64,000 bases of DNA from an uncultured Acidobacteriota bacterium (GTDB lineage Bacteria; Acidobacteriota; UBA6911): NCBI GenBank assembly GCA_963761825.1, contig CAVXIH010000009.1:542632-606631 (forward strand), written 5' to 3'. The notes under the pieces are model-generated. The model was not told the origin of the DNA and ran no database searches. It worked only from the letters and a program-made list of their open reading frames with translations. The first letter of the stretch is position 1; every line of letters starts with the position of its first letter. The translations under genes were made by a program, and so were the position numbers. Below are positions 1,795 through 63,838 of this stretch, piece by piece.

Positions 1795-1902
1795 ATCCAA
1801 CCAACATCCGGGACTTGGAGTCTTAGAGTAAACCGCACTTCTTATAACTCTAAGACTCCAAGCCTCAAACAAACCCGCCCCCAACATACAATGTACAATT
1901 AT

Positions 1903-1929
1903 GGTGACAGTCACCATAACCTCGAAATT
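1903..1929 (+). repeat. REP element, 27-nt family ggtgacagtcaccataacctcgaaatt, copy 1
   Basis: Contains the perfect palindrome GGTGACaGTCACC. Exact copy of the units flanking the RAYT gene at 17805. Confidence 0.7.
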
Positions 1930-1947
1930 TCCGCCTGGTGGTATTTC

Positions 1948-1974
1948 GGTGACAGTCACCATAACCTCGAAATT
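1948..1974 (+). repeat. REP element, same family, copy 2 (tandem with copy 1)
   Basis: Exact 27-nt repeat. The spacer tccgcctggtggtatttc is also found next to the copy at 18493. Confidence 0.7.
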
Positions 1975-2097
1975 CACTCCTATGAAAACAAAGGGTTTAT
2001 AGTGAGTGCCTCTATCCCATATTGGGGGCGTCTATAAACCTGTATTTATGCTAATTTATTCTTTTTATTAAGTTTATGCGAATTCATAGCCTAACGG

Positions 2098-2130
2098 AAT
2101 TTCGAGGTTATGGTGACTGTCACCGAAATT
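2098..2130 (-). repeat. REP element, same family, inverted copy
   Basis: aatttcgaggttatggtgactgtcaccgaaatt is the reverse complement of the REP unit. Together with 1903-1974 it forms an inverted cluster in the 5' region of the E1-alpha gene. Confidence 0.7.
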
Positions 2131-8400: not shown

Positions 8401-9972
8401 CGGGACGCGGCTCCATGCCGATCCGGGAGGAGTTCGCTGCACGCCCGACAGCCACGAGGATCGTGTCGGTCTTGATAGAAGAGATTTGGGAATCGTCGAA
8501 CAGGGGATTGTAGCGTTTAAATCCTCTGTACACATCGAACACACTCGTGCAGGCGCGGAAAGTCACCGAAGAAACACGTTCGTGCTCCGCCTCTATTCTG
8601 GTTGGGCTTAAACCATTGTGGATTTCCACGCCTTCTTCAACAGCCTGGGCAACCCGCTCCGGAAGAGCGGACATTTCGGATCGGCTCTCCATGCAGGCGA
8701 GGTGCACGGACTTCACGCCCGGCAATCGCAGCGCTGTGCGCGCGGCATCCAAAGCAGGATCGGAACTGCCGATGCACCAGGACGCTGGGACCGATTTCGG
8801 GGAGCATTGCCGGAATTTGCCTCGCAAAGGAAATTTAATCCGTCCAGCACACCCTGCGCATCCTCGCCGGGAATTCCCAGTTTGCGATTCTCCCAGGCGC
8901 CGGTGGCGACAAAAACCGCATGAAACCCTTCCGCCGTTGCGGAGCTTCCGCTCGATTGCGGGTCGGACCGGAGAAGGTTCTTCGGTGCAGCCACTGTGGT
9001 GCCGGTTTTTACTTCCACTCCCAGGCTGATGATCGCCTGAATTTCCTTGTCGAGGACTTCTTTAGGCAGGCGGTACGCAGGGATGCCGTATCGGAGCATT
9101 CCACCCAGCTGCGGCTTCGCTTCAAACAGCGTCACACTATAGCCCATCAGCGTCAGATCGGTTGCCGCCGTCAATCCGGCAGGACCTCCGCCTATGACGG
9201 CGACTTTTTCTTCCAATGAAACGGGCGCAGGCGAAAACGCCGGGACAGGATTCGAATGAATGAAGTCACCGACAAACCGTTCCAGGTGGCCGAAATATAC
9301 GGCTTCATCGACCGCTGCGCGATTGCAGTGGTTCTGGCAGGGGTGCGGACAGACGCGTCCGCAGGAAGCCGGAATCGGGCAGCGCTGACGGATGAGCTCA
9401 TACGCTTCCGGAATTTTGCCCGCGGAAATAAGGGCTACCGCGCCCGGCACATTGATGCCCGCCGGACAAGCGGCTTTGCACGGGGCAGTCCCGGAGGCTT
9501 TGGAAATACTGTATGCGCTGGGAATCGCCTGAGGATACAGTTGAAAAATCGCCTTGCGCGAACTTAAGCCGCGGTCAAATTCGCTTGGAAGGTTGACAGG
9601 GCAGACGGCGGCGCAATCGCCGCAGGCCTCGCATTTTTTAATATCGACATAGCGCGGATTCTGGCGAATCTTGACTTTGAAACGCCCCGGCTGGCCGGAG
9701 ACATCCTGGATATCCGCCAGCGTGATAATTTCTATGTTCCTGTTCCGGGCGCACTCCACCAATTTGGGCGAGAGAATGCACATCGCGCAGTCGCCGGTTG
9801 GAAAAGTTTTATCGAGCTGCGCCATGCGTCCGCCAATCGCCGCGGCGGCATCCAGCAGGTAGACCTTGAAACCGCTCCCTGCAAGGTCAAGGGAAGCCTG
9901 AACTCCGGCAATCCCTCCTCCGCAAACCAGCACTGCCCCTATATTGTCGTTCTCTATCATTGTCATAACCAA
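5453..9972 (-). CDS. hdrA: HdrA-like megafusion: HdrA N-terminal FAD and ferredoxin, GltD/NfnB-like NAD(P)H-flavin oxidoreductase, then a complete second HdrA module. Disrupted by 3 frameshifts.
   Basis: Pieces are ORFs 8713-9972, 8141-8827, 6300-8180 and 5453-6445, all collinear with the plus-strand paralog at 43223-47717. Motifs GGGIAG, CEACGDC, GltD-type AVIGGGPAG and IFAGGD, HdrA CVGSRD...CSSVCC, FVCQCG...CSWVH, and C-terminal CVACATC...CVGCGSCAAACP. One shift was traced to a single extra G at about 6500. Confidence 0.75.
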
Positions 9973-9973
9973 T

Positions 9974-10004
9974 TTCAGATTCCAGATTCCAAATTCCAGA
10001 TTCG
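9974..10004. repeat. AGATTCC heptamer tandem array (intergenic)
   Basis: tttcagattccagattccaaattccagattcg lies between gltB1-B3 and hdrA. The same unit is repeated at 61131-61160. Confidence 0.5.
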
Positions 10005-10013
10005 CATCTCGAA

Positions 10014-12620
10014 TTATTTCTTCGATGACGCCAGCACAGATAGCTTTACGGCACTGACTTTGCGATACACATCGTGTGGCGCTTTGATTTGTCCATCCAC
10101 AGTCAACAGATCCTGTACGCGAATGCCGAACAGGCGCTCATTCTCGGCCAGGTACGGATGGATCAGCCTCCAGTCCTTGTCGGAGATCTCGGAGAAAACG
10201 CCTCCGTTCAGCTGTCTCTCGACCACCTGGCGATGAGGATCCCGGATGTAAATTGCGCCGCCGCTGGCCAGAGAAAACAGGTTACTGCCCGGATAGGGTT
10301 TCGGCTGGGGAATGATCCGGCCGCACCCGTCAAATTCCATGCCGTTCAACACAACAAATCCTCCGCCTGCCAGCGGGTCGCCGGCCATGAAGGATTCCGC
10401 CAGAAAATCCAGGCAGGTGCCGTTGATAACGACGCGCGGCCGGCCTACGGCGTTGATCAGCGGCCGGCCCGCCGCGTTGCCGCGAACATACACCTCGCCG
10501 CCCTTGGCGCCATACATGAATGTCTGACCGACATCGCCATAGATGACGAGTTTGCCGCTCTTAGCGATCTGAGCGACCTGGTCCTGCGCATTGCCGTGAA
10601 CGTTGATGTGCAGGCCATCCATGCCGCTGGCGGTGTAATCCCCGTCGGACCCATATAAATCGAGGCGAACATCGCCGGTATCGGGACCGAGCCCGGCGCC
10701 GTGGAATCGCTGCCCTCGCAGGCGATAGACAATGAAACGTCTCCAGCCCGCCCGGTAGGCTTTGCGTAAAAGGACTGCATCGCAATCGTCTCCTTCCGGG
10801 GGAAAACCCTGGGCGTCGACTACCAGGATTTCTTCACCGGCGCGCGGCGCGGCGATGCGATCTCGAGTCGCCCAATCGATACGCCGCCAGAAGCGGGTCG
10901 CCGGCTCCCCGAATAGAGGCGCACTGTCAAAAAGAGTGTCGAGCATTTTTTCAAAAACCCAGACTGCCGTCGCACGGCGCTTATCGCCGGTGAAGAAATG
11001 CTGGTCGTGGAGTTTTGTCAGCACTTCGATGGCGGTGGCCCTGGATTTGGTATTGTCCGCGCCCTGGACAACCAGGCGGCAGAAACGCATCAAATCCCCC
11101 GGAGACCAGGACGGCAGATCCAGCACATAGGTGAACAGGGCGTTCACATTTCCTTTTTGCAGCCACTGATTCACCAATTCCCTCAAGGCATCCGGCGCAT
11201 CCTTCTTCGCCATTGCTTCTTCCGGCGCATCGCACCGAACGGAACCGCCGTCCAGCGTCACTTCATGGCCAAACTTGTTCGTGCATGCCAGAGTCTTCTT
11301 GCCATCCTGATCGGAATCGACGGTGAAGATGAAGGCACCGCCGTCTGAACTGGATCCGCCGCGGGCATTCCAATACTTGTCCGCTATGGGGCAGAACCGC
11401 ATATCCTCGCGGGCGAGGCTGCGCAGGGTAGCGTCGATCGCCTGCTTTTCAGAGCAGATCAAACCGATTTGGACATCGCCGTTGTCGGAAAGCGCAAAGA
11501 CCTGCGGCCGGAGCATAGCGGTATCTGTGATGCCCAGCAGCTGAACTCTCTTTTTGTCAGGCTGACTGCGGGCAATGATGAAGAACCATGGTCCGTCGGG
11601 CGATGCGTGAATATGCGTCGCCTGTATCTGACGGTAGATGACCTGCTTCTCCTGCGGCAACTGGTCGAAATCCAGTTCTGTGGTGGGAGCCAGCGCTTCG
11701 ATGATGTACTCCAGGGGATACTTGTAAACACGGTCCCACAGATCGAACAGCTGGACCGAGACCTCGGTGTCGGTCAGGAACTGCTGGCGGATATTTCGCT
11801 GCCGCAGATATTCGCAGACTGAATAGTAGTTTGCAAAATCCCCGTTGTGTACCAGAGCCTCGTTCACTCCCACAAACGGATGCGCACCCCCGGGATGCCA
11901 CACCCGCCCCTTGGTCGGATAGCGCTGATGCGCGATCCAGGCATGAGCTTTAAAATCCTGGAGCTGGTAATACTCGACATTCTGTTCGGCATAGCCGACC
12001 AGTTTAAAGACCAGGAGATCTCTTCCGTGCGAAAGGACGAAGGCGCGCTTATCGCCGAGCGAGGCGTAGTAGGCGTCATTGAGCCGGTAGGAATTTCGAT
12101 AGATGAATTCATCTTCGAGATCCCGGGCAGAAAGGCTTTCAAGTCCGGTCTCTGCGGCAAAGGATTTCAAAACACCGGGTTTTGTGCGCACCACATACCG
12201 GTGCACATCGGGCGGGCGGACCTCGAGTCCGGGGATATCGCGATAGTCGTCAATATGGGACTGACGCGTAGACAGGACCACTTCAAAGTTCGGCAGGATG
12301 TACTGGCGCTCGAGTTCGGCGTGGCAGGAAGAATCCAGCAGAGCGATTTGAAGGAGATAATAATCATCGAGGATCTCGCGCGAAACTCCCATCTGCTCCG
12401 GAGTCAGGCCGACAGCCGCAATGCCGCCCCCTTTGCCGTTTCCGCGATTCTGCATCTGGACTGAGGGTTCGTAGATAAACCTCCCTGCCAGAGGCACGGT
12501 GCAGGCAAAGCCCGTCACGCCGCAGCCACCTTCTTCCGCCGATTTCGACAGGGAGAGCGGCTCCGGCCGGGAATATATCTGGGATCGCGTCGCCAGCAAT
12601 TTTTCAGCAATTTCGTTCAC
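10014..12620 (-). CDS. glutamate-synthase-like GltB1 (class II glutamine amidotransferase) fused to GltB3 (GXGXG beta-helix domain)
   Basis: N-terminal GGCGVTGF places the Ntn Cys right after the leader. C-terminal tandem GXGXG repeats (HINVHGNAQDQVAQIAKSGKLVIYGDVGQTF...YVRGNAGRP...VINGT). 868 aa, intact. Confidence 0.75.
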   Translation of the reverse strand: MNEIAEKLLATRSQIYSRPEPLSLSKSAEEGGCGVTGFACTVPLAGRFIYEPSVQMQNRGNGKGGGIAAVGLTPEQMGVSREILDDYYLLQIALLDSSCHAELERQYILPNFEVVLSTRQSHIDDYRDIPGLEVRPPDVHRYVVRTKPGVLKSFAAETGLESLSARDLEDEFIYRNSYRLNDAYYASLGDKRAFVLSHGRDLLVFKLVGYAEQNVEYYQLQDFKAHAWIAHQRYPTKGRVWHPGGAHPFVGVNEALVHNGDFANYYSVCEYLRQRNIRQQFLTDTEVSVQLFDLWDRVYKYPLEYIIEALAPTTELDFDQLPQEKQVIYRQIQATHIHASPDGPWFFIIARSQPDKKRVQLLGITDTAMLRPQVFALSDNGDVQIGLICSEKQAIDATLRSLAREDMRFCPIADKYWNARGGSSSDGGAFIFTVDSDQDGKKTLACTNKFGHEVTLDGGSVRCDAPEEAMAKKDAPDALRELVNQWLQKGNVNALFTYVLDLPSWSPGDLMRFCRLVVQGADNTKSRATAIEVLTKLHDQHFFTGDKRRATAVWVFEKMLDTLFDSAPLFGEPATRFWRRIDWATRDRIAAPRAGEEILVVDAQGFPPEGDDCDAVLLRKAYRAGWRRFIVYRLRGQRFHGAGLGPDTGDVRLDLYGSDGDYTASGMDGLHINVHGNAQDQVAQIAKSGKLVIYGDVGQTFMYGAKGGEVYVRGNAAGRPLINAVGRPRVVINGTCLDFLAESFMAGDPLAGGGFVVLNGMEFDGCGRIIPQPKPYPGSNLFSLASGGAIYIRDPHRQVVERQLNGGVFSEISDKDWRLIHPYLAENERLFGIRVQDLLTVDGQIKAPHDVYRKVSAVKLSVLASSKK

Positions 12621-17570: not shown

Positions 17571-17588
17571 AGCAAAGGACATGCCAAT
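17571..17588 (-). promoter_or_regulatory. sigma-54 (RpoN) -24/-12 promoter
   Basis: Minus-strand read is TTGGCATGtcctTTGCT. It matches consensus TGGCAC-N5-TTGCW with correct spacing, about 20-45 nt upstream of the first ORF. Confidence 0.65.
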
Positions 17589-17736
17589 ATCAGGGCAGCA
17601 GGAAATTAAATATTCCACCCATTAAATTCAATATCTTGGAATAATCATGAAATCAATTATCGATTAGCCTCACCCCAAACCAAACCCTCCATGGTCTATT
17701 TTATGTACCACTCCGAAAACTTTTTATACCATTTTC

Positions 17737-17763
17737 GGTGACAGTCACCATAACCTCGAAATT
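17737..17763 (+). repeat. REP element, 5' flank of the RAYT gene
   Basis: Exact 27-nt ggtgacagtcaccataacctcgaaatt. Confidence 0.75.
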
Positions 17764-17804
17764 ATTTTTGAAATAAAAAGCGAAGTTGCGAAACATTATA
17801 GATT

Positions 17805-18494
17805 ATGCCGAGACTTCAAAGAGTTGTCATCCCTGGACGCCCGCATCACGTTACTCAGCGCGGCAATCATCGCCAAAGAGTGTTTTTTTCTGATAGGGAC
17901 TATGAAACCTACCTGACCCTTATGCGCAAGTATTTCCGGAAATATGGAGTAGATTTGGCTGGCTACTCGCTGATGCCCAATCATGTCCACCAGGCGGCTA
18001 TACCAGCTCTGGAAAACTCTCTAGCTAAAGGAGTTGGGCTGCTACATAACGATTTCTCGAGGTGGCAGCAGATCCAGCGGGATCAGACTGGGCATCTCTG
18101 GCAAAACAGGTTCTTTTCAAATCCGATGGATGATTCCTATTTTTGGATGGCGCTGCGCTATATTGAGCTCAATCCAGTGCGGGCCGGATTGGTGCGGAAC
18201 GCTTGGGATTGGCCATGGTCCAGCGCCCGCGCCCATGTTACAGGTATGGATGAAACCGGGATGCTGAACATGGAGCTATGGGGAAAGTATTTCGACAAAA
18301 TCCGATGGAAGGAATTCCTCTTGGAGGGATTGAATAAAACTGATGAGATAGATCTTATACGCGTGGCGAACAGAACAGGACGTCCCATTGGCAGTGAGGA
18401 TTTTATTCGGAGCCTGGAAAAGATGACAGGGCGGTCGCTTTTTCCGAAAAAAAGAGGGCCAAAACCCAGATTGGGCAAAAAACTATCCCAGTAA
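17805..18494 (+). mobile_element. REP-associated tyrosine transposase (RAYT; IS200/IS605 TnpA-like Y1 HUH transposase)
   Basis: PRLQRVVIPGRPHHVTQRGNHRQRVFF N-terminus, HUH motif PNHVHQAA, flanked by inverted REP units. 229 aa, intact. Confidence 0.8.
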
Positions 18495-18524
18495 TTTCGA
18501 GGTTATGGCGCCTGTCACCGAAAT
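18493..18524 (-). repeat. REP element, 3' flank of the RAYT gene (inverted)
   Basis: aatttcgaggttatggcgcctgtcaccgaaat followed by accaccaggcgga, the same spacer as at 1930-1947. It is the 1925-1974 module in reverse complement with a gtcac to gcgcc variant. Confidence 0.7.
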
Positions 18525-18560
18525 ACCACCAGGCGGAATTTGAGAGGGGGTTAGAGGAGG

Positions 18561-20369
18561 TTAGAGGAGGTTGTAGTGGCTCAGCTTTTTTCTTAGGGTA
18601 ACGCGACTCATTGCCAGCAGGTCTGCCAGTTCGCGCTGGCTGTATTGGTTGGAATCCAAAAGGTAGCGCAGAAGCGTTTCCTCCACCGATTCCAGCAGCG
18701 CATCACGAATACCGGAAGTATCATTGCGGGAAACCAGGAAGCGGACGACCGCCTGGCGAAGTTCGGACTGTGGGTCCGCAACTTTTTCGGCATCGGGATT
18801 GGTCAGAAAATCTGGTCGGCCTTCCCTTATTTCCTCGGGTATCAGTTCAAGGGACACGGTATTGTCGGGGCTCATGACCACTGCCCTTTCAATGCAGTTT
18901 TCCAGTTCCCGTACATTTCCCGGCCACGAATGCGCCAGCAATGCGTCCAGCACTTCACGCGGCACCTGCGTAACCTGGCGATTTGCCTCGCGATTGTACT
19001 TTTCAAGAAAGTTATCCACCAGAAGCGGAATATCCTCGCGGCGATCGCGGAGCGGAGGCAGATGAATAGGGATGACGTTCAGCCGGTAGAACAGATCCTG
19101 GCGAAATCGTCCGGCCCGTATCTCCGCTCGCAGGTCCCGTCCGGTCGCGGCCACGATTCGGACATCCACCGTTATGGTTTTGCTCGATCCCACAGGTTCC
19201 AATTGATGTTCCTGCAGCACGCGCAGGAGCTTAACCTGAAGGCGCGGACTCATTTCGCTCACTTCATCGAGGAAGAGAGTCCCGCCTTCGGCCGTACGGA
19301 AGCGCCCTTCGTAATCGCGCACAGCCCCGGTAAAAGCGCCCTTCACATGACCGAACAGCTCTGTTTCAAGCAGGGTTTCCGGAAGCGCGCCGCAGTTTAC
19401 CTTAACGAGCGGACCCGCAGCTCGGTCGCTGTTATAATGCACGACATTCGCGATGAGTTCCTTGCCCGTGCCCGTCTCCCCTGTAATAAGGACCGACGAA
19501 CGCGAACGGGCGGCAGTCGCCGCCAATCCCAGCAGGCGCCGGATAGCCGCGCTTCCCCCTACGATGCTGTCGACTCGGTAGGTCCGCCGCAGTTCCTCGC
19601 CTCGCCGTGTCATCCGGTCGAGGTCCCGTTCTTTCCCCGCCTCGCGTTCCTGAACAGCGACTCCCTCATCCAAATCCAGAGCCTGCGGCGTCCCGATCGC
19701 GGCACTGCGCCCGGCGGCTTTGTGTATCGTAAGCGCCCTCTGCCCGTTGGACAGGGACACCTCGATGACAACCTGCGTAATGTGCCGCACTTTCGCCAGG
19801 AAAACTTCCGTGTGTGCTTCGGTTTCGATAAGCCAATACGCAAGGGTGGAAAGGTCATAGAGACGAGGGCACAAGTGCCCGAACAGTCGCGCGACCCGAT
19901 TCTCATCGCCCCAAAGATCCAGCATTCCGGTAAGCGAATCAAAAACATAGTTTGCCGACTGGCCTCCGCGCGTGCCAACTTCGATCAGAGCCTGCTCCAA
20001 CCGTGAGGGATCCGACGGGTCGGCAATATGGACCGGCGCATGCACTGCGTTGCGCGCAGGGTCATCAAAAAATTTGAGAAACATCTCGTCGGAATTTCCT
20101 TTGCCCGAGGAGAAGCAGTCGATAAGCGAAAACCGTCCGGGAGACATGAGCCTGGCGTACTTGGACGCTATGGTTTGAGGCGAACGGTTGAAGCTCACGT
20201 AAACAACCGGAATCCCACCCTGCTCGCAGGATTGAACAAAACTGGAGATGAAATGATCGCCGGCCACGCCGGAGTCGATTTCCCACACCAGATTATCCCC
20301 GGTGATCACTCCGCCAATCGCTTTGTCCACTTCGGGTATGCCCGTAGTGGGCTTATATCGAAATGCCAT
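18561..20369 (-). CDS. sigma-54-dependent transcriptional activator (bEBP) with N-terminal degenerate KaiC/RecA-like domain and C-terminal Fis-type HTH
   Basis: AAA+ sigma-54 interaction domain with GETGTGKE, GAFTGA and the LQVKLLRVLQE arginine-finger region. C-terminal HTH RELADLLAMSRVTLRKKL. N-terminal TGIPEVDKAIGGVITGDNLVWEIDSG resembles KaiC/RadA but has no Walker-A GKT. Confidence 0.8.
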   Translation of the reverse strand: MAFRYKPTTGIPEVDKAIGGVITGDNLVWEIDSGVAGDHFISSFVQSCEQGGIPVVYVSFNRSPQTIASKYARLMSPGRFSLIDCFSSGKGNSDEMFLKFFDDPARNAVHAPVHIADPSDPSRLEQALIEVGTRGGQSANYVFDSLTGMLDLWGDENRVARLFGHLCPRLYDLSTLAYWLIETEAHTEVFLAKVRHITQVVIEVSLSNGQRALTIHKAAGRSAAIGTPQALDLDEGVAVQEREAGKERDLDRMTRRGEELRRTYRVDSIVGGSAAIRRLLGLAATAARSRSSVLITGETGTGKELIANVVHYNSDRAAGPLVKVNCGALPETLLETELFGHVKGAFTGAVRDYEGRFRTAEGGTLFLDEVSEMSPRLQVKLLRVLQEHQLEPVGSSKTITVDVRIVAATGRDLRAEIRAGRFRQDLFYRLNVIPIHLPPLRDRREDIPLLVDNFLEKYNREANRQVTQVPREVLDALLAHSWPGNVRELENCIERAVVMSPDNTVSLELIPEEIREGRPDFLTNPDAEKVADPQSELRQAVVRFLVSRNDTSGIRDALLESVEETLLRYLLDSNQYSQRELADLLAMSRVTLRKKLSHYNLL

Positions 20370-39337: not shown

Positions 39338-39403
39338 GGCCACAGATTCCACTGATTTCACAGATTATATTTTTTTTCTGTGAAATCAGTGAAATCTGTG
39401 GCC
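39338..39403. terminator. rho-independent terminator hairpin
   Basis: ggccacagattccactgatttcacag / ctgtgaaatcagtgaaatctgtggcc with a T8 run, downstream of typA. Confidence 0.6.
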
Positions 39404-41287: not shown

Positions 41288-41450
41288 CGACGTCAAGCCC
41301 ATCGGAATCGGTATCGGAATCGGTATCGGAATCGGGTATCGGGTATCGGTTTTGGTTTTCGGCCATCGAAAAGAAAAGCCGATTGCGATTGCGATTATCG
41401 ATACCGATTCCGATAGCGATAGCGATTCCGAAGCGATAAGGCACAGCCAT
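41288..41450. repeat. GATACCG-unit long imperfect hairpin repeat, copy B
   Basis: Left arm ggaatcggtatcggaatcggtatcggaatcgggtatcgggtatcgg, centre ttttggttttcggccatcgaaaagaaaagcc, right arm cgataccgattccgatagcgatagcgattccgaagcgat. Lies in the typA / hdrC divergent intergenic region. Confidence 0.55.
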
Positions 41451-47800: not shown

Positions 47801-48353
47801 ATGGAAGCGATACAACAATCGGTACAGGAAAACGTGCAACCGGCGGGCTTTGAACCGGAAATCGTGGCTTTCTGTTGCGAGTTTTGAGCGTACAGCGCTG
47901 CGGACCTGGCAGGTTCGATGAGGCTCAATTACCCGACATTCATTAAAGATCGTTAAAGTGCCCTGTACGGGAAGAGTGGATGTACTAACCATCCTCAAGG
48001 CTTTTGAATCCGGAGTGGATGGGGTATATCTCGCGGGATGCCTGGAAGGAGAATGCCATTTCCTAAAAGGCAATCTCAGGGCCAGGAAAAGAGTGAATTA
48101 TGCCAAGACGCTATTGAAGGAAGTGGGGATAGAACCGGAGCGGCTGGAAATGTACAACATGAGTTCCGCTCAGGGACAGCGATTTGCCGCTATCGCCAAT
48201 GAAATGACGGAAAAGATCCGCGCTCTGGGGCCAAGCCCCATAAAAAAGGCAAAGGAACATTCAAAGCATAAGAGCGAGTTTCCCGTTTCCCGTTCCCCAT
48301 TATCCGGGGCTTTCAACGGGAAACCGGAAACGGGAAACGGGAACACAAGGTAA
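47801..48353 (+). CDS. mvhD: MvhD family protein with in-frame TGA (candidate selenocysteine) at 47885-47887 and one +1 frameshift at about 47948
   Basis: MEAIQQSVQENVQPAGFEPEIVAFCCEF-TGA-AYSAADLAGSMRLNYPTFIK / IVKVPCTGRVD...GCLEGECHF. Aligns residue for residue with MvhD at 4956-5456, where the TGA position is Cys (FCCSYCAFSAAALAG). Confidence 0.7.
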
Positions 48354-49038: not shown

Positions 49039-49137
49039 GAAGCATTTATACGATTGACGATTGACGATTGACGATTGCCGTGAGATCGTCAATCGTAAAT
49101 CGTCAATCGTCAATTTCTTAATGGAGGATTTGAGACG

Positions 49138-50146: not shown

Positions 50147-50546
50147 GGCGCGAATTCTTGTTATTGATGATGACTTGCACATGAGGACCGCCTGCGCGCG
50201 CGTGCTCGCAAAGGCCGGGCATACGGTCACATGCGCCGAAACCGGCAATGAGGGACTCAAGATGCTCGGCAGCAGCGCAGCCGGGTTCGAGGTGGTTCTG
50301 CTGGACCAGCTGATGCCCGGCATGAGCGGCATGGAAACGCTGGCAGGGATCAAGGTCATGGCGCCGGACCTTCCGGTCATCATTATCACAGGTTCGGTCT
50401 CCGACGAAACCTCGGCAGAGCTCGTTGACCGGGGTGCCTGTGATTGCCTGCCCAAGCCCTTCAACCCCGAACAACTCCGCACGGCCGTCGAAAAAGCCCG
50501 AAAAGGGAGTCGTCTAGTAAAATACGCCACGGATTCCACGGATTAA
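50145..50546 (+). CDS. single-domain CheY-like response regulator receiver protein
   Basis: ILVIDDD...VLLDQLMPGMSG...LPKPF. ATG abuts the terminator T-run with no SD. Confidence 0.65.
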   Translation: MARILVIDDDLHMRTACARVLAKAGHTVTCAETGNEGLKMLGSSAAGFEVVLLDQLMPGMSGMETLAGIKVMAPDLPVIIITGSVSDETSAELVDRGACDCLPKPFNPEQLRTAVEKARKGSRLVKYATDSTD

Positions 50547-50598
50547 CACAGATTGAAAATTTCGGAGATCTGTAAAATCCGTGGAATCCGTGGCGTAT
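50521..50598 (+). terminator. perfect 24-bp inverted repeat with T-rich tail, overlapping the receiver gene stop
   Basis: aatacgccacggattccacggatt ... aatccgtggaatccgtggcgtatt, then ttgtttggg. Confidence 0.55.
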
Positions 50599-50666
50599 TT
50601 TGTTTGGGAATTCGATGACTGTGCGCGGGTTTTGTATTAGTCTTTGGTGACATTTATGGAGATTGA

Positions 50667-54373: not shown

Positions 54374-54396
54374 CCATCAGGCAGAAAACGTGGAAA

Positions 54397-54446
54397 ACGT
54401 GGACACCCACTATTTACATAGAAAGAAACGTGGACACCCACTATTT
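54397..54446. repeat. REP-like doublet, family 2 (aacgtggacacccactattt x2)
   Basis: Two direct copies 30 bp apart. Inverted relative to the doublet at 55855-55913 on the other side of the Y1 transposase gene. Confidence 0.55.
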
Positions 54447-54583
54447 CTATGTTTGATTTTTGTTGACTAAATCCGGGTCTCTGCGAGGAAGGGCTATTAG
54501 GGATAGAGGAAACGGATGCGCCCAGTGAATAAGACAAATCGACAGAGTGGCGGACTTTAGCTCAGTCTCCGGCATGGAGATAG

Positions 54584-55790
54584 TCAAATGATGCAGGAAA
54601 CGATCGATGGGATCAGAGGATCTCGCGGGAGTTGCAGAGGAAGGACTGATGGAGGGATAGGGTTCAGGCCGATTGCGGTGGCGAGACTGCAAAGGAGGCT
54701 CGAGCCGCGGCAACGCCGGTAAGCCAGCGTCTGGCCGAGCTGATCTGCAAAACTGCGCAGACTGGAAACCAGACCGGCTGCGAGGCGGAATTTGGATGCG
54801 AAGAGGGAAACGGTGTCAATCCACGCTTCGGGATTGGCCCCGATCCGCAGGAGGATCGGGGCAAGACCGGCATCGATGGCTCCGCGCTTGTCGGACCGCA
54901 GTATGCGCCCTGATTTATCCACCAGATCGAAATACTCGGTTGCCGTCATCGGGAGGATGCCGCGGCGTTGGGAATCCGATTGGATAGGACACAGCCAGCA
55001 AGAGGAAGGGGCACGAAGGGAATTGAAAGGAAGGCATTCGGGGATAGCGTTGGAACTGTCGGCCCTATCTTCCAGTGTCTGCAGGTCTTGGCTGAAAGAG
55101 CCAGACGGACAGTTTTGATTGGGCTCACCGGGAACGGAGCCTGCGGCCATCATTTCGCTTATGCCATGCGCGGATTCGTTCCTGGATGCTGGTGAAGTTG
55201 CTTTCTTCAGGAGTGGCAGCGAGAGCGGCGCGGATAGGATTGAGATCGACATAAACCATGCAAGCGGCGATGGCCGCATCGTCGAGCAGGTTCTGGCATT
55301 TGAAGCGCGATTCCCAGAACCGGCCTTTGACGCTATCTTCTTTGTTTGCAGCGCGGGCGATGAATTCGTTAAGCCGGCCCATGAACCAGCTCAGGCTACA
55401 CAAACGTTTACGCAGTTGGGCGATACGTTCCGGGCAATCGGCCAGGGCGCGGATTTGCTCGTCGGTAGGGGGCACGGCGGCATCCTTGAGAGGGAAGAGG
55501 GTCAGCCAGCGGATTGCCACGTCCCAATCGGACCAGGTAGCGACGATGTCGGGGCGAGTGCGCAGAATAGAGTGGTAGTGAGTCTCCATGATGGCGTAAG
55601 CGCAGACTTCGATAGCGAAAATAGCGGCGAGATGCCGCAACCTGTCGACCAGCCATGTTTTGCGGTGGGAGAAGTCGCGTTGTGTGAGGGTGTCGTAGCC
55701 GCAAAGAAACGCCCTGCGGACGCACCGGCTGAAGCAGTGATAGACGCCTTCTTTTCCTTCCTTGACATATTTGCTGCGCGGGAGAGCCAT
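54584..55790 (-). mobile_element. Y1 (HUH) IS200/RAYT-like transposase, apparently frameshifted at about 55125-55279, with C-terminal extension
   Basis: N-terminal ORF 55125-55790 carries a HUH motif (METHYHSIL) and a downstream catalytic-Tyr region. A second frame (54584-55279) continues with an alpha-helical extension. Flanked by inverted REP-like doublets. Confidence 0.55.
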
Positions 55791-55854
55791 GGTTCACCTC
55801 GTTTCATATAACTAATGGCGAACTCATGGAATGAGCCAAAATATATTTATAAAT

Positions 55855-55913
55855 AAGTGGGTGTCCAGGGTCTCCTTGGTCTACTGGTCTAATAAAGAAG
55901 TGGGTGTCCAGGG
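55855..55913. repeat. REP-like doublet, family 2 (aagtgggtgtccaggg x2), inverted partner of 54397-54446
   Basis: Core gtgggtgtcca is the reverse complement of tggacacccac. Followed by gttgctg micro-repeats at 55921-55960. Confidence 0.55.
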
Positions 55914-56047
55914 TTACTGTCCAGGGTTGCTGCTGGTGTTGCTGGTTATGTTGCTGCTATATTTCTTTCCCGTGTACGTTAACGGGATGCTATAGTACCT
56001 CGCATTTAGCGGATTACAGGCAAAGCGGTTCATCCCGGAGGTTTATA

Positions 56048-59535: not shown

Positions 59536-59627
59536 AGGATAGTGGGATGAAGAGGAACGGGGATAGCGGTTCTTTCCCCTTTAATCCTTTAATCCTTTAA
59601 TCCTTTAATCCTTGATTCCTTTGGTCC
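59464..59627. repeat. AAAGGAT / TAATCCT heptamer arrays forming a long imperfect hairpin
   Basis: caaaggatcaaaggatatcaaagggg... opposite cccctttaatcctttaatcctttaatcctttaatccttgattcctttgg, immediately upstream of uxaC. Confidence 0.55.
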
Positions 59628-61056: not shown

Positions 61057-61130
61057 TGGCAAGCATGGTCCGCACTTCTCGCGGCATTTTTAGCGAAGCG
61101 GCGCAGATGGGCGTGGATATAATTGATACT

Positions 61131-61207
61131 GGATTCCAGATTCCAGATTCCAGATATCAGGTTGCAGGACGCTAGCTGTCGTTAATCCGGAATTTGGAAT
61201 CTGAATT
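61131..61207. repeat. AGATTCC heptamer tandem array with downstream inverted partner
   Basis: ggattccagattccagattccagatatcag ... ccggaatttggaatctgaatt. Same unit as at 9974-10004. Confidence 0.5.
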
Positions 61208-63717: not shown

Positions 63718-63838
63718 TTTAGGCCTGACAAGTCGGCATCGGAATCGCTATCGGGATCGGTATCGGCTTTTCAGATCGAGGATCGATTTCCGAGATTCGA
63801 TACCGATAGCGATAGCGATTCCGATACCGACCTTATTG
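63718..63838. repeat. GATACCG-unit hairpin repeat, copy C
   Basis: gtcggcatcggaatcgctatcgggatcggtatcggc ... tcgataccgatagcgatagcgattccgataccgacc (arms are reverse complements). Confidence 0.55.

Follow-up and report, generated by a model that had tools for sequence, protein, structure and literature searches.

A TIRYT-class HUH transposase at a conserved locus and its probable cognate 33-nt repeat family in uncultured Acidobacteriota

Introduction

One class of HUH/Y1 tyrosine transposases has been described under three names: the TIRYT proteins of TIRtrons (Di Nocera et al. 2013, PMC3733652) correspond to TnpA-Y1 subclass 2.1 (Quentin et al. 2018, PMC6006769) and to Group 1 of the RAYTs, the transposases associated with repetitive extragenic palindromic (REP) sequences (Bertels et al. 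2017, PMC5581495). Class 2 (TnpA-REP-like) proteins carry a Y-x3-NP tyrosine motif where class 1 (IS200) proteins carry Y-x3-Q, and subclass 2.1 is recognized by the motifs NHVH, W[EQ] and YIELNP, a proximal tail with SS, a conserved C-terminal extension and a median length of 238 amino acids (PMC6006769). Quentin et al. scored this subclass as "REP: no" (PMC6006769), Di Nocera et al. reported a GGGGWSAS motif in TIRYT flanks and, in some species, moderately abundant families of the flanking inverted repeats arranged in dimers and clusters (PMC3733652), and Bertels et al. counted about 12 occurrences per replicon for the 16-mers that flank Group 1 genes and rated this group the most insertion sequence (IS)-like of the RAYTs (PMC5581495). 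Domesticated RAYTs are characterized by a single copy, vertical inheritance and evolution like that of housekeeping genes (PMC5581495), and REPIN-RAYT systems are described as vertically inherited single-copy transposases with doublet replicators. Here we analyze a transposase gene of this kind, and the repeats that flank it, in a 64,000-nt stretch of DNA (hereafter the window) from an uncultured Acidobacteriota bacterium of the UBA6911 lineage (assembly GCA_963761825.1, contig CAVXIH010000009.1, positions 542,632 to 606,631).

The locus resembles a TIRtron in that its protein is 42-47% identical over its full length to published TIRYTs, has their signature and is close to their median length (229 versus 238 amino acids), its gene is flanked by long inverted repeats of which the 3' one overlaps the gene end, and the repeat is moderately abundant and occurs in dimers and clusters. 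It differs from published subclass 2.1/Group 1 systems in that its repeat has only 33 nt, is clearly extragenic and resembles REPINs, with convergent doublets copied as units, and from published TIRYTs in that the gene has stayed at one site under purifying selection throughout a clade of UBA6911-type metagenome-assembled genomes (MAGs). A related gene of K. versatilis (open reading frame (ORF) 2776) was, unlike this system, reported without a repeated family of terminal inverted repeats. We consider it probable that the window holds a domesticated, single-locus HUH/Y1 transposase of the TIRYT class with a cognate repeat family whose doublets are copied in trans.

Results

The transposase gene lies between inverted copies of a 33-nt repeat

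A first-pass annotation of the window had counted five copies of a 27-mer and placed a Y1 transposase gene between two inverted ones. We recovered all five copies: GGTGACAGTCACCATAACCTCGAAATT is exact at 1903(+), 1948(+), 2098(-) and 17737(+), and the fifth, at 18493(-), has two mismatches (GGTGACAGGCGCC), while 100 dinucleotide-preserving shuffles of the window gave no match. The ORF at 17805-18494 does sit between the copies at 17737(+) and 18493(-). To define the repeat, one genome per species was scanned for the 27-mer with K and R allowed at its two variable positions, which yielded 56 stretches from 12 MAG assemblies. Eleven of these assemblies carry the label Acidobacteriota or Terriglobia and are of the UBA6911, Zodletone and Microflora Danica types. 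Loci of 8 kb around exact matches were then fetched (541 kb in all; L-numbers below). Over 95 copies, conservation starts six bases upstream of the 27-mer, so that the earlier repeat is real but its conserved unit is 33 nt (AATTTC plus the 27-mer), of the form (A)ATTTC-GGTGACAG[T/G]C[A/G]CCATAACCTCGAAATT with AATT at either end. The three copies at 1903, 1948 and 2098, previously called a BIME-like cluster, are all present and are organized as one long doublet with one extra tandem copy. The parts of the system in the window are:

17805..18494, + strand: Y1/HUH tyrosine transposase gene, 229 amino acids, TIRYT / TnpA-Y1 subclass 2.1 type (Pfam Y1_Tnp)
17731..17763, + strand: 5' flanking repeat, 33-nt unit of type A (ATTTTC+GGTGACAGTCACCATAACCTCGAAATT), ending 41 nt before the transposase ATG
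18493..18525, - strand: 3' flanking repeat, 33-nt unit of type B (GGTGACAGGCGCC...), its AATT end overlapping the transposase TAA stop by 2 nt
18526..18547, - strand: palindromic linker (CCGCCTGGTGG) and truncated tail of another repeat copy, homologous to 1920-1941
1897..1929, + strand: dispersed repeat copy of type A with the 5' variant AATTAT, first of a tandem pair with linker TCCGCCTGGTGGT
1942..2130, no strand assigned: long doublet of about 190 nt, with repeat(+) at 1942-1974, an AT-rich 123-nt spacer and repeat(-) at 2098-2130

The 3' flank and the 1920-1947 region form an inverted pair (I4) of 55 nt at 91% identity. No Rfam family reached its gathering score anywhere in positions 1-64000, so the repeats are not a known RNA motif.

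The gene and its two repeats are fixed at one site

The nearest relative, CAVRAD010000021.1, is 95% identical to the window. The gene order FlpD, small ORF (65/73 amino acids), transposase and sigma-54 activator recurs in five related loci, and the transposase is 94% identical to the window protein in L048, 88% in L057, 85% in L023 and 76% in L058/L059. In L048, L057, L023 and L058 the upstream repeat ends 41 nt before the ATG and the second repeat overlaps the stop codon, exactly as in the window. A 66% homologue (L060/L061) is at a different location. Transposase identity declines in step with that of the neighboring genes, and among syntenic loci the ratio of nonsynonymous to synonymous substitution rates (dN/dS) is 0.04-0.12, with dS rising to a saturated value above 2. 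Constancy of site and repeat offsets in diverged loci, together with saturated dS and low dN/dS, argues that this is not a recent insertion. The unit had been annotated as "inserted", and as a recent event this has to be abandoned, since the gene and its two repeats occupy the same site in orthologous loci down to 76% identity with dS above 2. As judged from these sequence comparisons, the transposase is vertically inherited and under strong purifying selection at its locus.

The flanking repeat diverges along with the protein. Where the proteins are 88-94% identical, 0-2 nt of the repeat are changed relative to the window; this rises to 2-4 nt at 76-85% and to about 11 of 27 nt at 66%. The upstream repeat starts with GGTGACAG, which matches GGGGWSAS at seven of eight positions and reads GGGGACAG in the 66% orthologue, and inverted flanks are found in all orthologues. 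In CAZTHE, the syntenic site (L034) has kept both repeats around a gene reduced to 46 codons, and L054 holds a second transposase remnant between repeats. A search of 72,556 plasmid records returned 26 matches, all below 40% identity, and thus no close plasmid relatives of the transposase.

The repeat is numerous, extragenic and oriented convergently

With up to four mismatches allowed, we counted at least 27 copies in CAVRAD01, 19 in CAYGWQ01, 14 in JAFGTD01 and 13 in CAZTHE01, each number being a lower bound within the loci fetched around exact matches. Under a greedy longest-ORF gene model, 66 of 97 copies (68%) are intergenic and 11 lie within ORFs, where random positions give 12.8% and 74.5%. 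The first-pass annotation had taken fewer than about 10 copies without an intergenic bias as the sign of an ordinary IS200 remnant; what we found are counts of at least 27, 19, 14 and 13 and an intergenic share of 68% versus 13%. Being short, present in many copies and extragenic, the population falls under the functional definition of REP/REPIN sequences.

Positions 9 and 11 of the unit are strictly coupled: 51 copies have T..A (type A), 42 have G..G (type B) and only 2 of the 95 are intermediates, and the two types are biased by lineage. A profile search returned 104 copies in 63 clusters, comprising 29 simple doublets, 29 singles and a few arrays. Neighboring copies on opposite strands are convergent, with their AAATT ends facing, in 34 pairs and divergent in none; the pair around the transposase gene has the orientation of these dispersed pairs. 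The inner spacer of convergent doublets is typically 25-37 nt, and tandem copies are 44-45 nt apart with a palindromic CCRCCWGGYGG linker between them. Exact 27-mers are kept even by genomes that have reached synonymous saturation relative to the window. One locus with two copies, L042 (CAVPDA010000013.1), is labelled "beta proteobacterium" and was recovered from the sample that also gave the acidobacterial MAG CAVRAD01; this label probably reflects mis-binning rather than horizontal transfer.

Doublets are copied as units

Three doublets of CAYGWQ01 (L014, L039 and L040) share a homologous 31-33-nt spacer within unrelated outer flanks, and the same holds for the doublets of L021, L027 and L047 and for two in L052. 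The presence of whole doublets with homologous spacers at unrelated loci identifies the doublet as the copied unit, as in REPINs. A long form, in which a repeat and an inverted repeat enclose an AT-rich spacer of 123-135 nt, is found at 1942-2130 of the window and at three CAVRAD loci (L001, L019 and L049). The spacers of L019 and L049 are 78% identical, and the 123-nt spacer of the window is 54-57% identical to the CAVRAD copies, against a shuffled control with a mean of 44% and a maximum of 61%. Homology of the window spacer to these copies is thus suggested at a level modestly above control and by the shared spacer ends mainly.

The spacer between the PPIase and E1-alpha genes holds three copies in the window, where it measures 425 nt, little beyond a compact doublet in L063 (108 nt) and no copy in L062 (183 nt); as read from this comparison, repeats are gained or lost at one orthologous site. 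The repeat and the transposase had been called an active REP/RAYT pair, and of this description the pairing is kept while activity is put forward solely by implication, from doublets at unrelated loci and from gain and loss at orthologous sites. The repeat pairs at L034 689-910 (CAZTHE) and L054 1250-1537 (JAFGTD) surround transposase remnants corresponding to residues 86-131 and 167-212, respectively. These are natural intermediates and illustrate how a gene-less doublet can arise by internal deletion.

The transposase belongs to the TIRYT class

The HUH motif PNHVHQAA that had been noted in the 229-residue protein is confirmed by H60-V61-H62 (codons at 17982-17990), by Y119 (codon at 18159-18161) and by a match to Pfam Y1_Tnp (PF01797) at 2.9e-11 (44 bits versus a cutoff of 23). 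By contrast, the "YxxxQ-like region" needs correction: the tyrosine motif is YIELNP, which is the Y-x3-NP of class 2 and not the Y-x3-Q of the IS200 class. In an alignment of 40 homologues (96-50% identity), the conserved residues are N59, H60, H62, W99, Q100, Y119, N123, P124, W136, W138, S139 and S140. Over 41 homologues H60, H62 and Y119 are invariant or nearly so, as in the PF01797 superfamily, and within Y119-I-E-L-N123-P124, N123 is invariant and P124 is found in at least 90% of sequences, as in class 2. The combination of N59-H-V-H62, W99-Q100, YIELNP and W138-S139-S140 in a protein of 229 residues agrees with the motif definition of subclass 2.1.

We compared the protein with the TIRYT sequences printed in Additional file 5 of Di Nocera et al. 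(PMC3733652). It is identical from end to end at 47% of positions to GSU2396, 45% to BBta_5382, 44% to Acid345_2776 and 42% to Pcar_3049, and its alignments with E. coli b0228 and P. fluorescens PFLU4255 are partial only, at 24-28%. On the NCBIfam profile REP_Tyr_transpos (NF047646) all 146 positions are aligned, and the score of 73.2 bits is below the cutoff of 80, which places the protein outside the canonical RAYTs. No exact match to it was present in the contig collection. An AlphaFold2 model built on the 40-homologue alignment (pLDDT 90) has 4ER8, the REP-associated transposase of E. coli in complex with a REP hairpin, as its best match among solved structures (E 2.7e-9; TM 0.71 on the target), followed by the IS200, IS608 and ISDra2 transposases; 4ER8 is also the sole meaningful PDB match by sequence (E 3e-4). 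The model predicts an extra helical C-terminal domain of about 75 residues (approximately 150-210) that is absent from 4ER8. Because similarity is full-length at 42-47% and the motifs NHVH, WQ, YIELNP and WSS are all present, we assign the protein by sequence to the TIRYT class, equivalent to TnpA-Y1 subclass 2.1 and RAYT Group 1, and not to the canonical RAYTs of GTAG-type REPs. The name RAYT given to it earlier is therefore apt in the broad sense, and it is the precise class that had to be changed.

A sigma-70-like sequence (GTGACA, 16 nt, AATTAT; 9 of 12 positions) lies at 17738-17765(+) within the 5' repeat and points towards the transposase gene, and this repeat may be the source of the transposase promoter. 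The sequence TTGCGAAACATTA directly before the transposase ATG is conserved even in the 66% orthologue (L060/L061).

Stems of the repeat are conserved without covariation

The predicted fold of a single unit consists of an outer AATTTCG/CGAAATT stem, an inner GGTGA/TCACC stem and an 8-nt bulge. Over 105 copies these stems are conserved instead of covarying. The whole doublet at 1890-2135 folds strongly as a DNA hairpin (-55.8 kcal/mol, z -11), as any inverted pair would. The repeat had been credited with a palindromic core, and a 13-bp palindrome does exist in it; this is not a conserved requirement, as GGCGCC in 42 of 95 copies breaks the palindrome without compensation. We looked for target-site duplications at 26 doublet boundaries and found none outside the unit, only the self-complementary AATT within it, which argues against a miniature inverted-repeat transposable element (MITE) of the DDE type. 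This AATT, found at either end, could belong to the inverted repeat itself or be the tetranucleotide that is cleaved or targeted.

The E1-alpha gene starts downstream of the repeat cluster

The longest E1-alpha ORF, with its start at ATG 2076, includes the repeat at 2098, and the apparent overlap of repeats with the 5' end of this gene arises from taking that ORF. The closest E1-alpha homologue has 344 amino acids and most orthologues have 321, which places the start at TTG 2220 and leaves all three repeat copies intergenic; the overlap is accordingly withdrawn. TTG 2220 lies six bases after a GGGAGG ribosome-binding site, and the same codon is TTG in L063. A comparison with a relative that lacks the repeat (L062, CAZTHE), where this codon is ATG, likewise does not bear out the extended ORF. 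For the nearest E1-alpha orthologue (P0121, 96%), known by length alone, the spacer to the same ATG is 342 nt compared with 357 nt in the window. Longest-ORF calling can thus wrongly extend genes into repeats of this kind.

A sigma-54 promoter lies at a fixed distance from the promoter-proximal repeat

Two neighboring features are context and not part of the element:

17571..17586, - strand: sigma-54 promoter consensus TGGCATgtcctTTGCT of the FlpD/MTHFR operon
18561..20369, - strand: sigma-54 activator gene (Pfam Sigma54_activat, 2.4e-68), its stop codon abutting the 3' repeat region

The pattern TGGCAY-N5-TTGCW has a single match in the window, just upstream of the 73-amino-acid ORF, FlpD and MTHFR operon. 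Its distance is 147 nt to the repeat unit and 151 nt to the 27-mer, in agreement with the sigma-54 promoter annotated at about 150 nt from the unit. The promoter is conserved in six genomes (the window, L048, L057, L058, L023 and L034), and in each of the six, including L034, which lacks the transposase, the repeat lies 145-147 nt from the -24 element. In the stretch at 17586-17733 and its orthologues, the spacing is fixed despite modest sequence identity, and a block just 5' of the repeat, CCACnCCGnAA...TATACCAwTTTC, is conserved. The promoter-proximal repeat may have been recruited, or may merely bound a length-constrained enhancer region. We rejected the repeat as a general sigma-54 enhancer, as none of the approximately 55 other repeat loci (541 kb) carries a sigma-54 motif.

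The N-terminal domain of the activator is KaiC/RecA-like (PF06745, below cutoff at 3.9e-5), where a receiver, GAF or PAS sensor domain would be usual. An 11-nt tandem duplication (GGTTAGAGGAG, twice at 18550-18571) spans the activator stop codon beside the truncated repeat remnant; L048 has three degenerate copies of this sequence, and L057 and L023 have one each.

Other repeats and transposase-like genes in the window

A second, different Y1 transposase-like gene is located at 55125-55790(-), within the stretch 54395-55914. It encodes 221 amino acids with the motifs THYH, WE and YVDLNP, which correspond to subclass 2.3 in Table 1 of PMC6006769, and its score on NCBIfam REP_Tyr_transpos is 38 bits, with no match in Pfam. 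Its C-terminal part is in another frame (ORF 54584-55279), so the gene is frameshifted or split. It is flanked by doubled, mutually inverted 21-23-nt units (ACGTGGACACCCACT twice at 54397-54442 and its complement twice at 55856-55913), a repeat type present in none of the fetched loci.

A separate family of simple palindromic repeats forms intergenic hairpins or arrays of tandem 6-8-nt units, such as ATTGACG facing its complement, and repeats of the TCGGAATCGGTATCG type are common to distant sites of the window. Members lie at 952-980, 9958-10016, 39338-39403, 41301-41431, 48280-48343, 49050-49114, 50519-50601, 59570-59625, 61119-61163 and 63732-63831.

Discussion

The system at this locus shares features with two further groups of elements. 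Like the REP/BIME-RAYT (REPtron) and REPIN-RAYT systems of E. coli and Pseudomonas (Groups 2 and 3), it has a vertically inherited gene bracketed by inverted copies of its own repeat, its repeats are extragenic, inverted doublets are the replicating unit, and the closest solved fold is TnpA-REP (4ER8); types A and B are comparable to the Y and Z REPs of those systems. It differs from them in its protein, which has 24-28% partial identity to canonical RAYTs, 73 bits where 80 are needed and the additional C-terminal helical domain of about 75 residues, and in its repeats, which have no GT[AG]G foot, a weak hairpin and tens rather than hundreds of copies. With IS200/IS605 elements (IS608, ISDra2) it shares the HUH/Y1 fold, the catalytic residues and, presumably, recognition of a single-stranded hairpin, whereas Y-x3-NP, symmetric inverted ends, the absence of tnpB, a gene that is not multicopy within the loci covered and a unit that is not mobile set it apart.

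By analogy with E. coli TnpA-REP and IS608 TnpA, the transposase would recognize the 33-nt repeat, possibly folded in single-stranded DNA, and cleave next to it, perhaps at the AATT of both ends. Catalysis would use Y119 with a metal held by H60 and H62, followed by strand rejoining, and doublets would be copied or excised in trans while the gene stays in place and is inherited vertically.

Several observations weigh against a cognate transposase and repeat family of this kind. A single 33-nt unit folds at only -4.7 kcal/mol (z -2.6), and the type B fold is weaker than this. The 42 type B copies among 95 break the inner stem by losing an A-T pair and converting another to T.G without compensation. 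Covariation in support of the hairpin is absent, with only 1-2 double changes in the outer stem over a set of 105 copies. The consensus AATTTCGGTGACAGKCRCCATAACCTCGAAATT lacks a GTAG/GTGG foot and hence falls outside canonical REPs, and copies number in the tens and not the hundreds. CAZTHE has at least 13 repeats despite a gene reduced to 46 codons, which implies that repeats can persist alone or that an unsampled other copy exists; no second copy of this transposase class was seen in the window or in the 541 kb of loci. The spacers of related doublets have already diverged (54-78% identity in the long form) and so give no sign of recent activity. Finally, the mechanism is proposed for a subclass 2.1/TIRYT protein by analogy.

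We weighed three other explanations of the locus. An ordinary autonomous IS200/IS605-type IS, or a MITE family derived from a DDE transposon, might have landed recently between the activator and its operon and left the short copies as decay products. The protein does match the Pfam family "Transposase IS200 like", IS200, IS608 and ISDra2 are its next-best folds after 4ER8, internally deleted derivatives occur in L034 and L054, and Group 1 is the RAYT group closest to IS elements by the rating of Bertels et al. (PMC5581495). This explanation is nevertheless largely refuted by synteny, as the sequences record it: five diverged loci agree in site and in repeat offsets at saturated dS and a dN/dS of 0.04-0.12, and transposase identity tracks that of the neighbors. 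Moreover, the tyrosine motif is Y-x3-NP and not Y-x3-Q, the ends are inverted copies of one repeat where those of IS200/IS605 are asymmetric, no target-site duplication extends beyond the self-complementary AATT of the unit, tnpB is absent and close plasmid relatives are lacking. We therefore hold a recent IS to be very improbable. An equally slim chance is left for the proposal that the gene-proximal repeat was co-opted into the sigma-54 enhancer architecture, as an activator site or a bending or looping element, and that the locus is frozen for this reason. The constant 145-147 nt between the -24 element and the repeat in six genomes, even with the transposase deleted (L034) and despite saturated dS, the 13-bp palindrome at the usual enhancer distance and an activator gene that ends at the other repeat would all fit such a role. 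However, the lack of a sigma-54-like promoter at the other repeat loci speaks against a general enhancer, real activator sites between promoter and repeat would explain the constant spacer equally well, and type B copies, among them the promoter-proximal ones of L023 and L034, have a broken palindrome.

The repeats could, alternatively, be functional elements of the host, such as protein-binding sites, hairpins that end transcripts or stabilize mRNA, or supercoiling sites, with the transposase historically linked to them and inactive on them. This we regard as unlikely, though less so than the preceding two. It would account for a 33-mer that is nearly invariant across genomes with saturated synonymous sites, for copies that lie after stop codons and between convergent genes, such as those at the stops of the transposase and activator genes and downstream of the PPIase, for the persistence of CAZTHE repeats where the syntenic gene is destroyed, and for related doublets whose spacers are old and diverged while the repeat ends are perfect. 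It does not readily account for a gene under strong purifying selection that is always found with its two repeats, for a repeat sequence that shifts together with the protein in more distant orthologues, or for whole doublets copied to unrelated loci with their non-conserved spacers, and the exclusively convergent layout (34:0) fits a transposition unit better than independent binding sites. A host function of the repeats and a domesticated transposase acting on its cognate repeats are not mutually exclusive.

Each element of this system has been described before, and its novelty is modest. What is new is its documentation in the UBA6911-type acidobacterial clade and, for subclass 2.1, what appears from the sequences to be an unusually clear case of a frozen locus with purifying selection, co-divergence of repeat and protein, and doublet copying. 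Whether a TIRYT transposase of subclass 2.1/Group 1 runs a full REPIN-RAYT-like system in these uncultured Acidobacteriota, with a frozen gene, co-evolving 33-nt repeats, copied doublets and persistence through synonymous saturation, is in our estimate an even question. An extension in which the promoter-proximal repeat was also recruited into the sigma-54 enhancer region, given the fixed 145-147 nt, is less likely.

If such a system does operate here, the lifestyle of a vertically inherited intragenomic replicator would not be confined to RAYT Groups 2 and 3 or to the Proteobacteria, and neither a GTAG foot nor a strong hairpin would be required for it. The locus ties TIRYT/subclass 2.1, the largest and a poorly understood TnpA-REP-like subclass, to a REPIN-like repeat population and to long-term vertical inheritance, and it offers concrete substrates for recognition tests, namely the 33-mer with both of its sub-types and doublets of defined structure. 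From an uncultured phylum-level lineage, it also adds a data point on the persistence of RAYT-type genes and their repeats.

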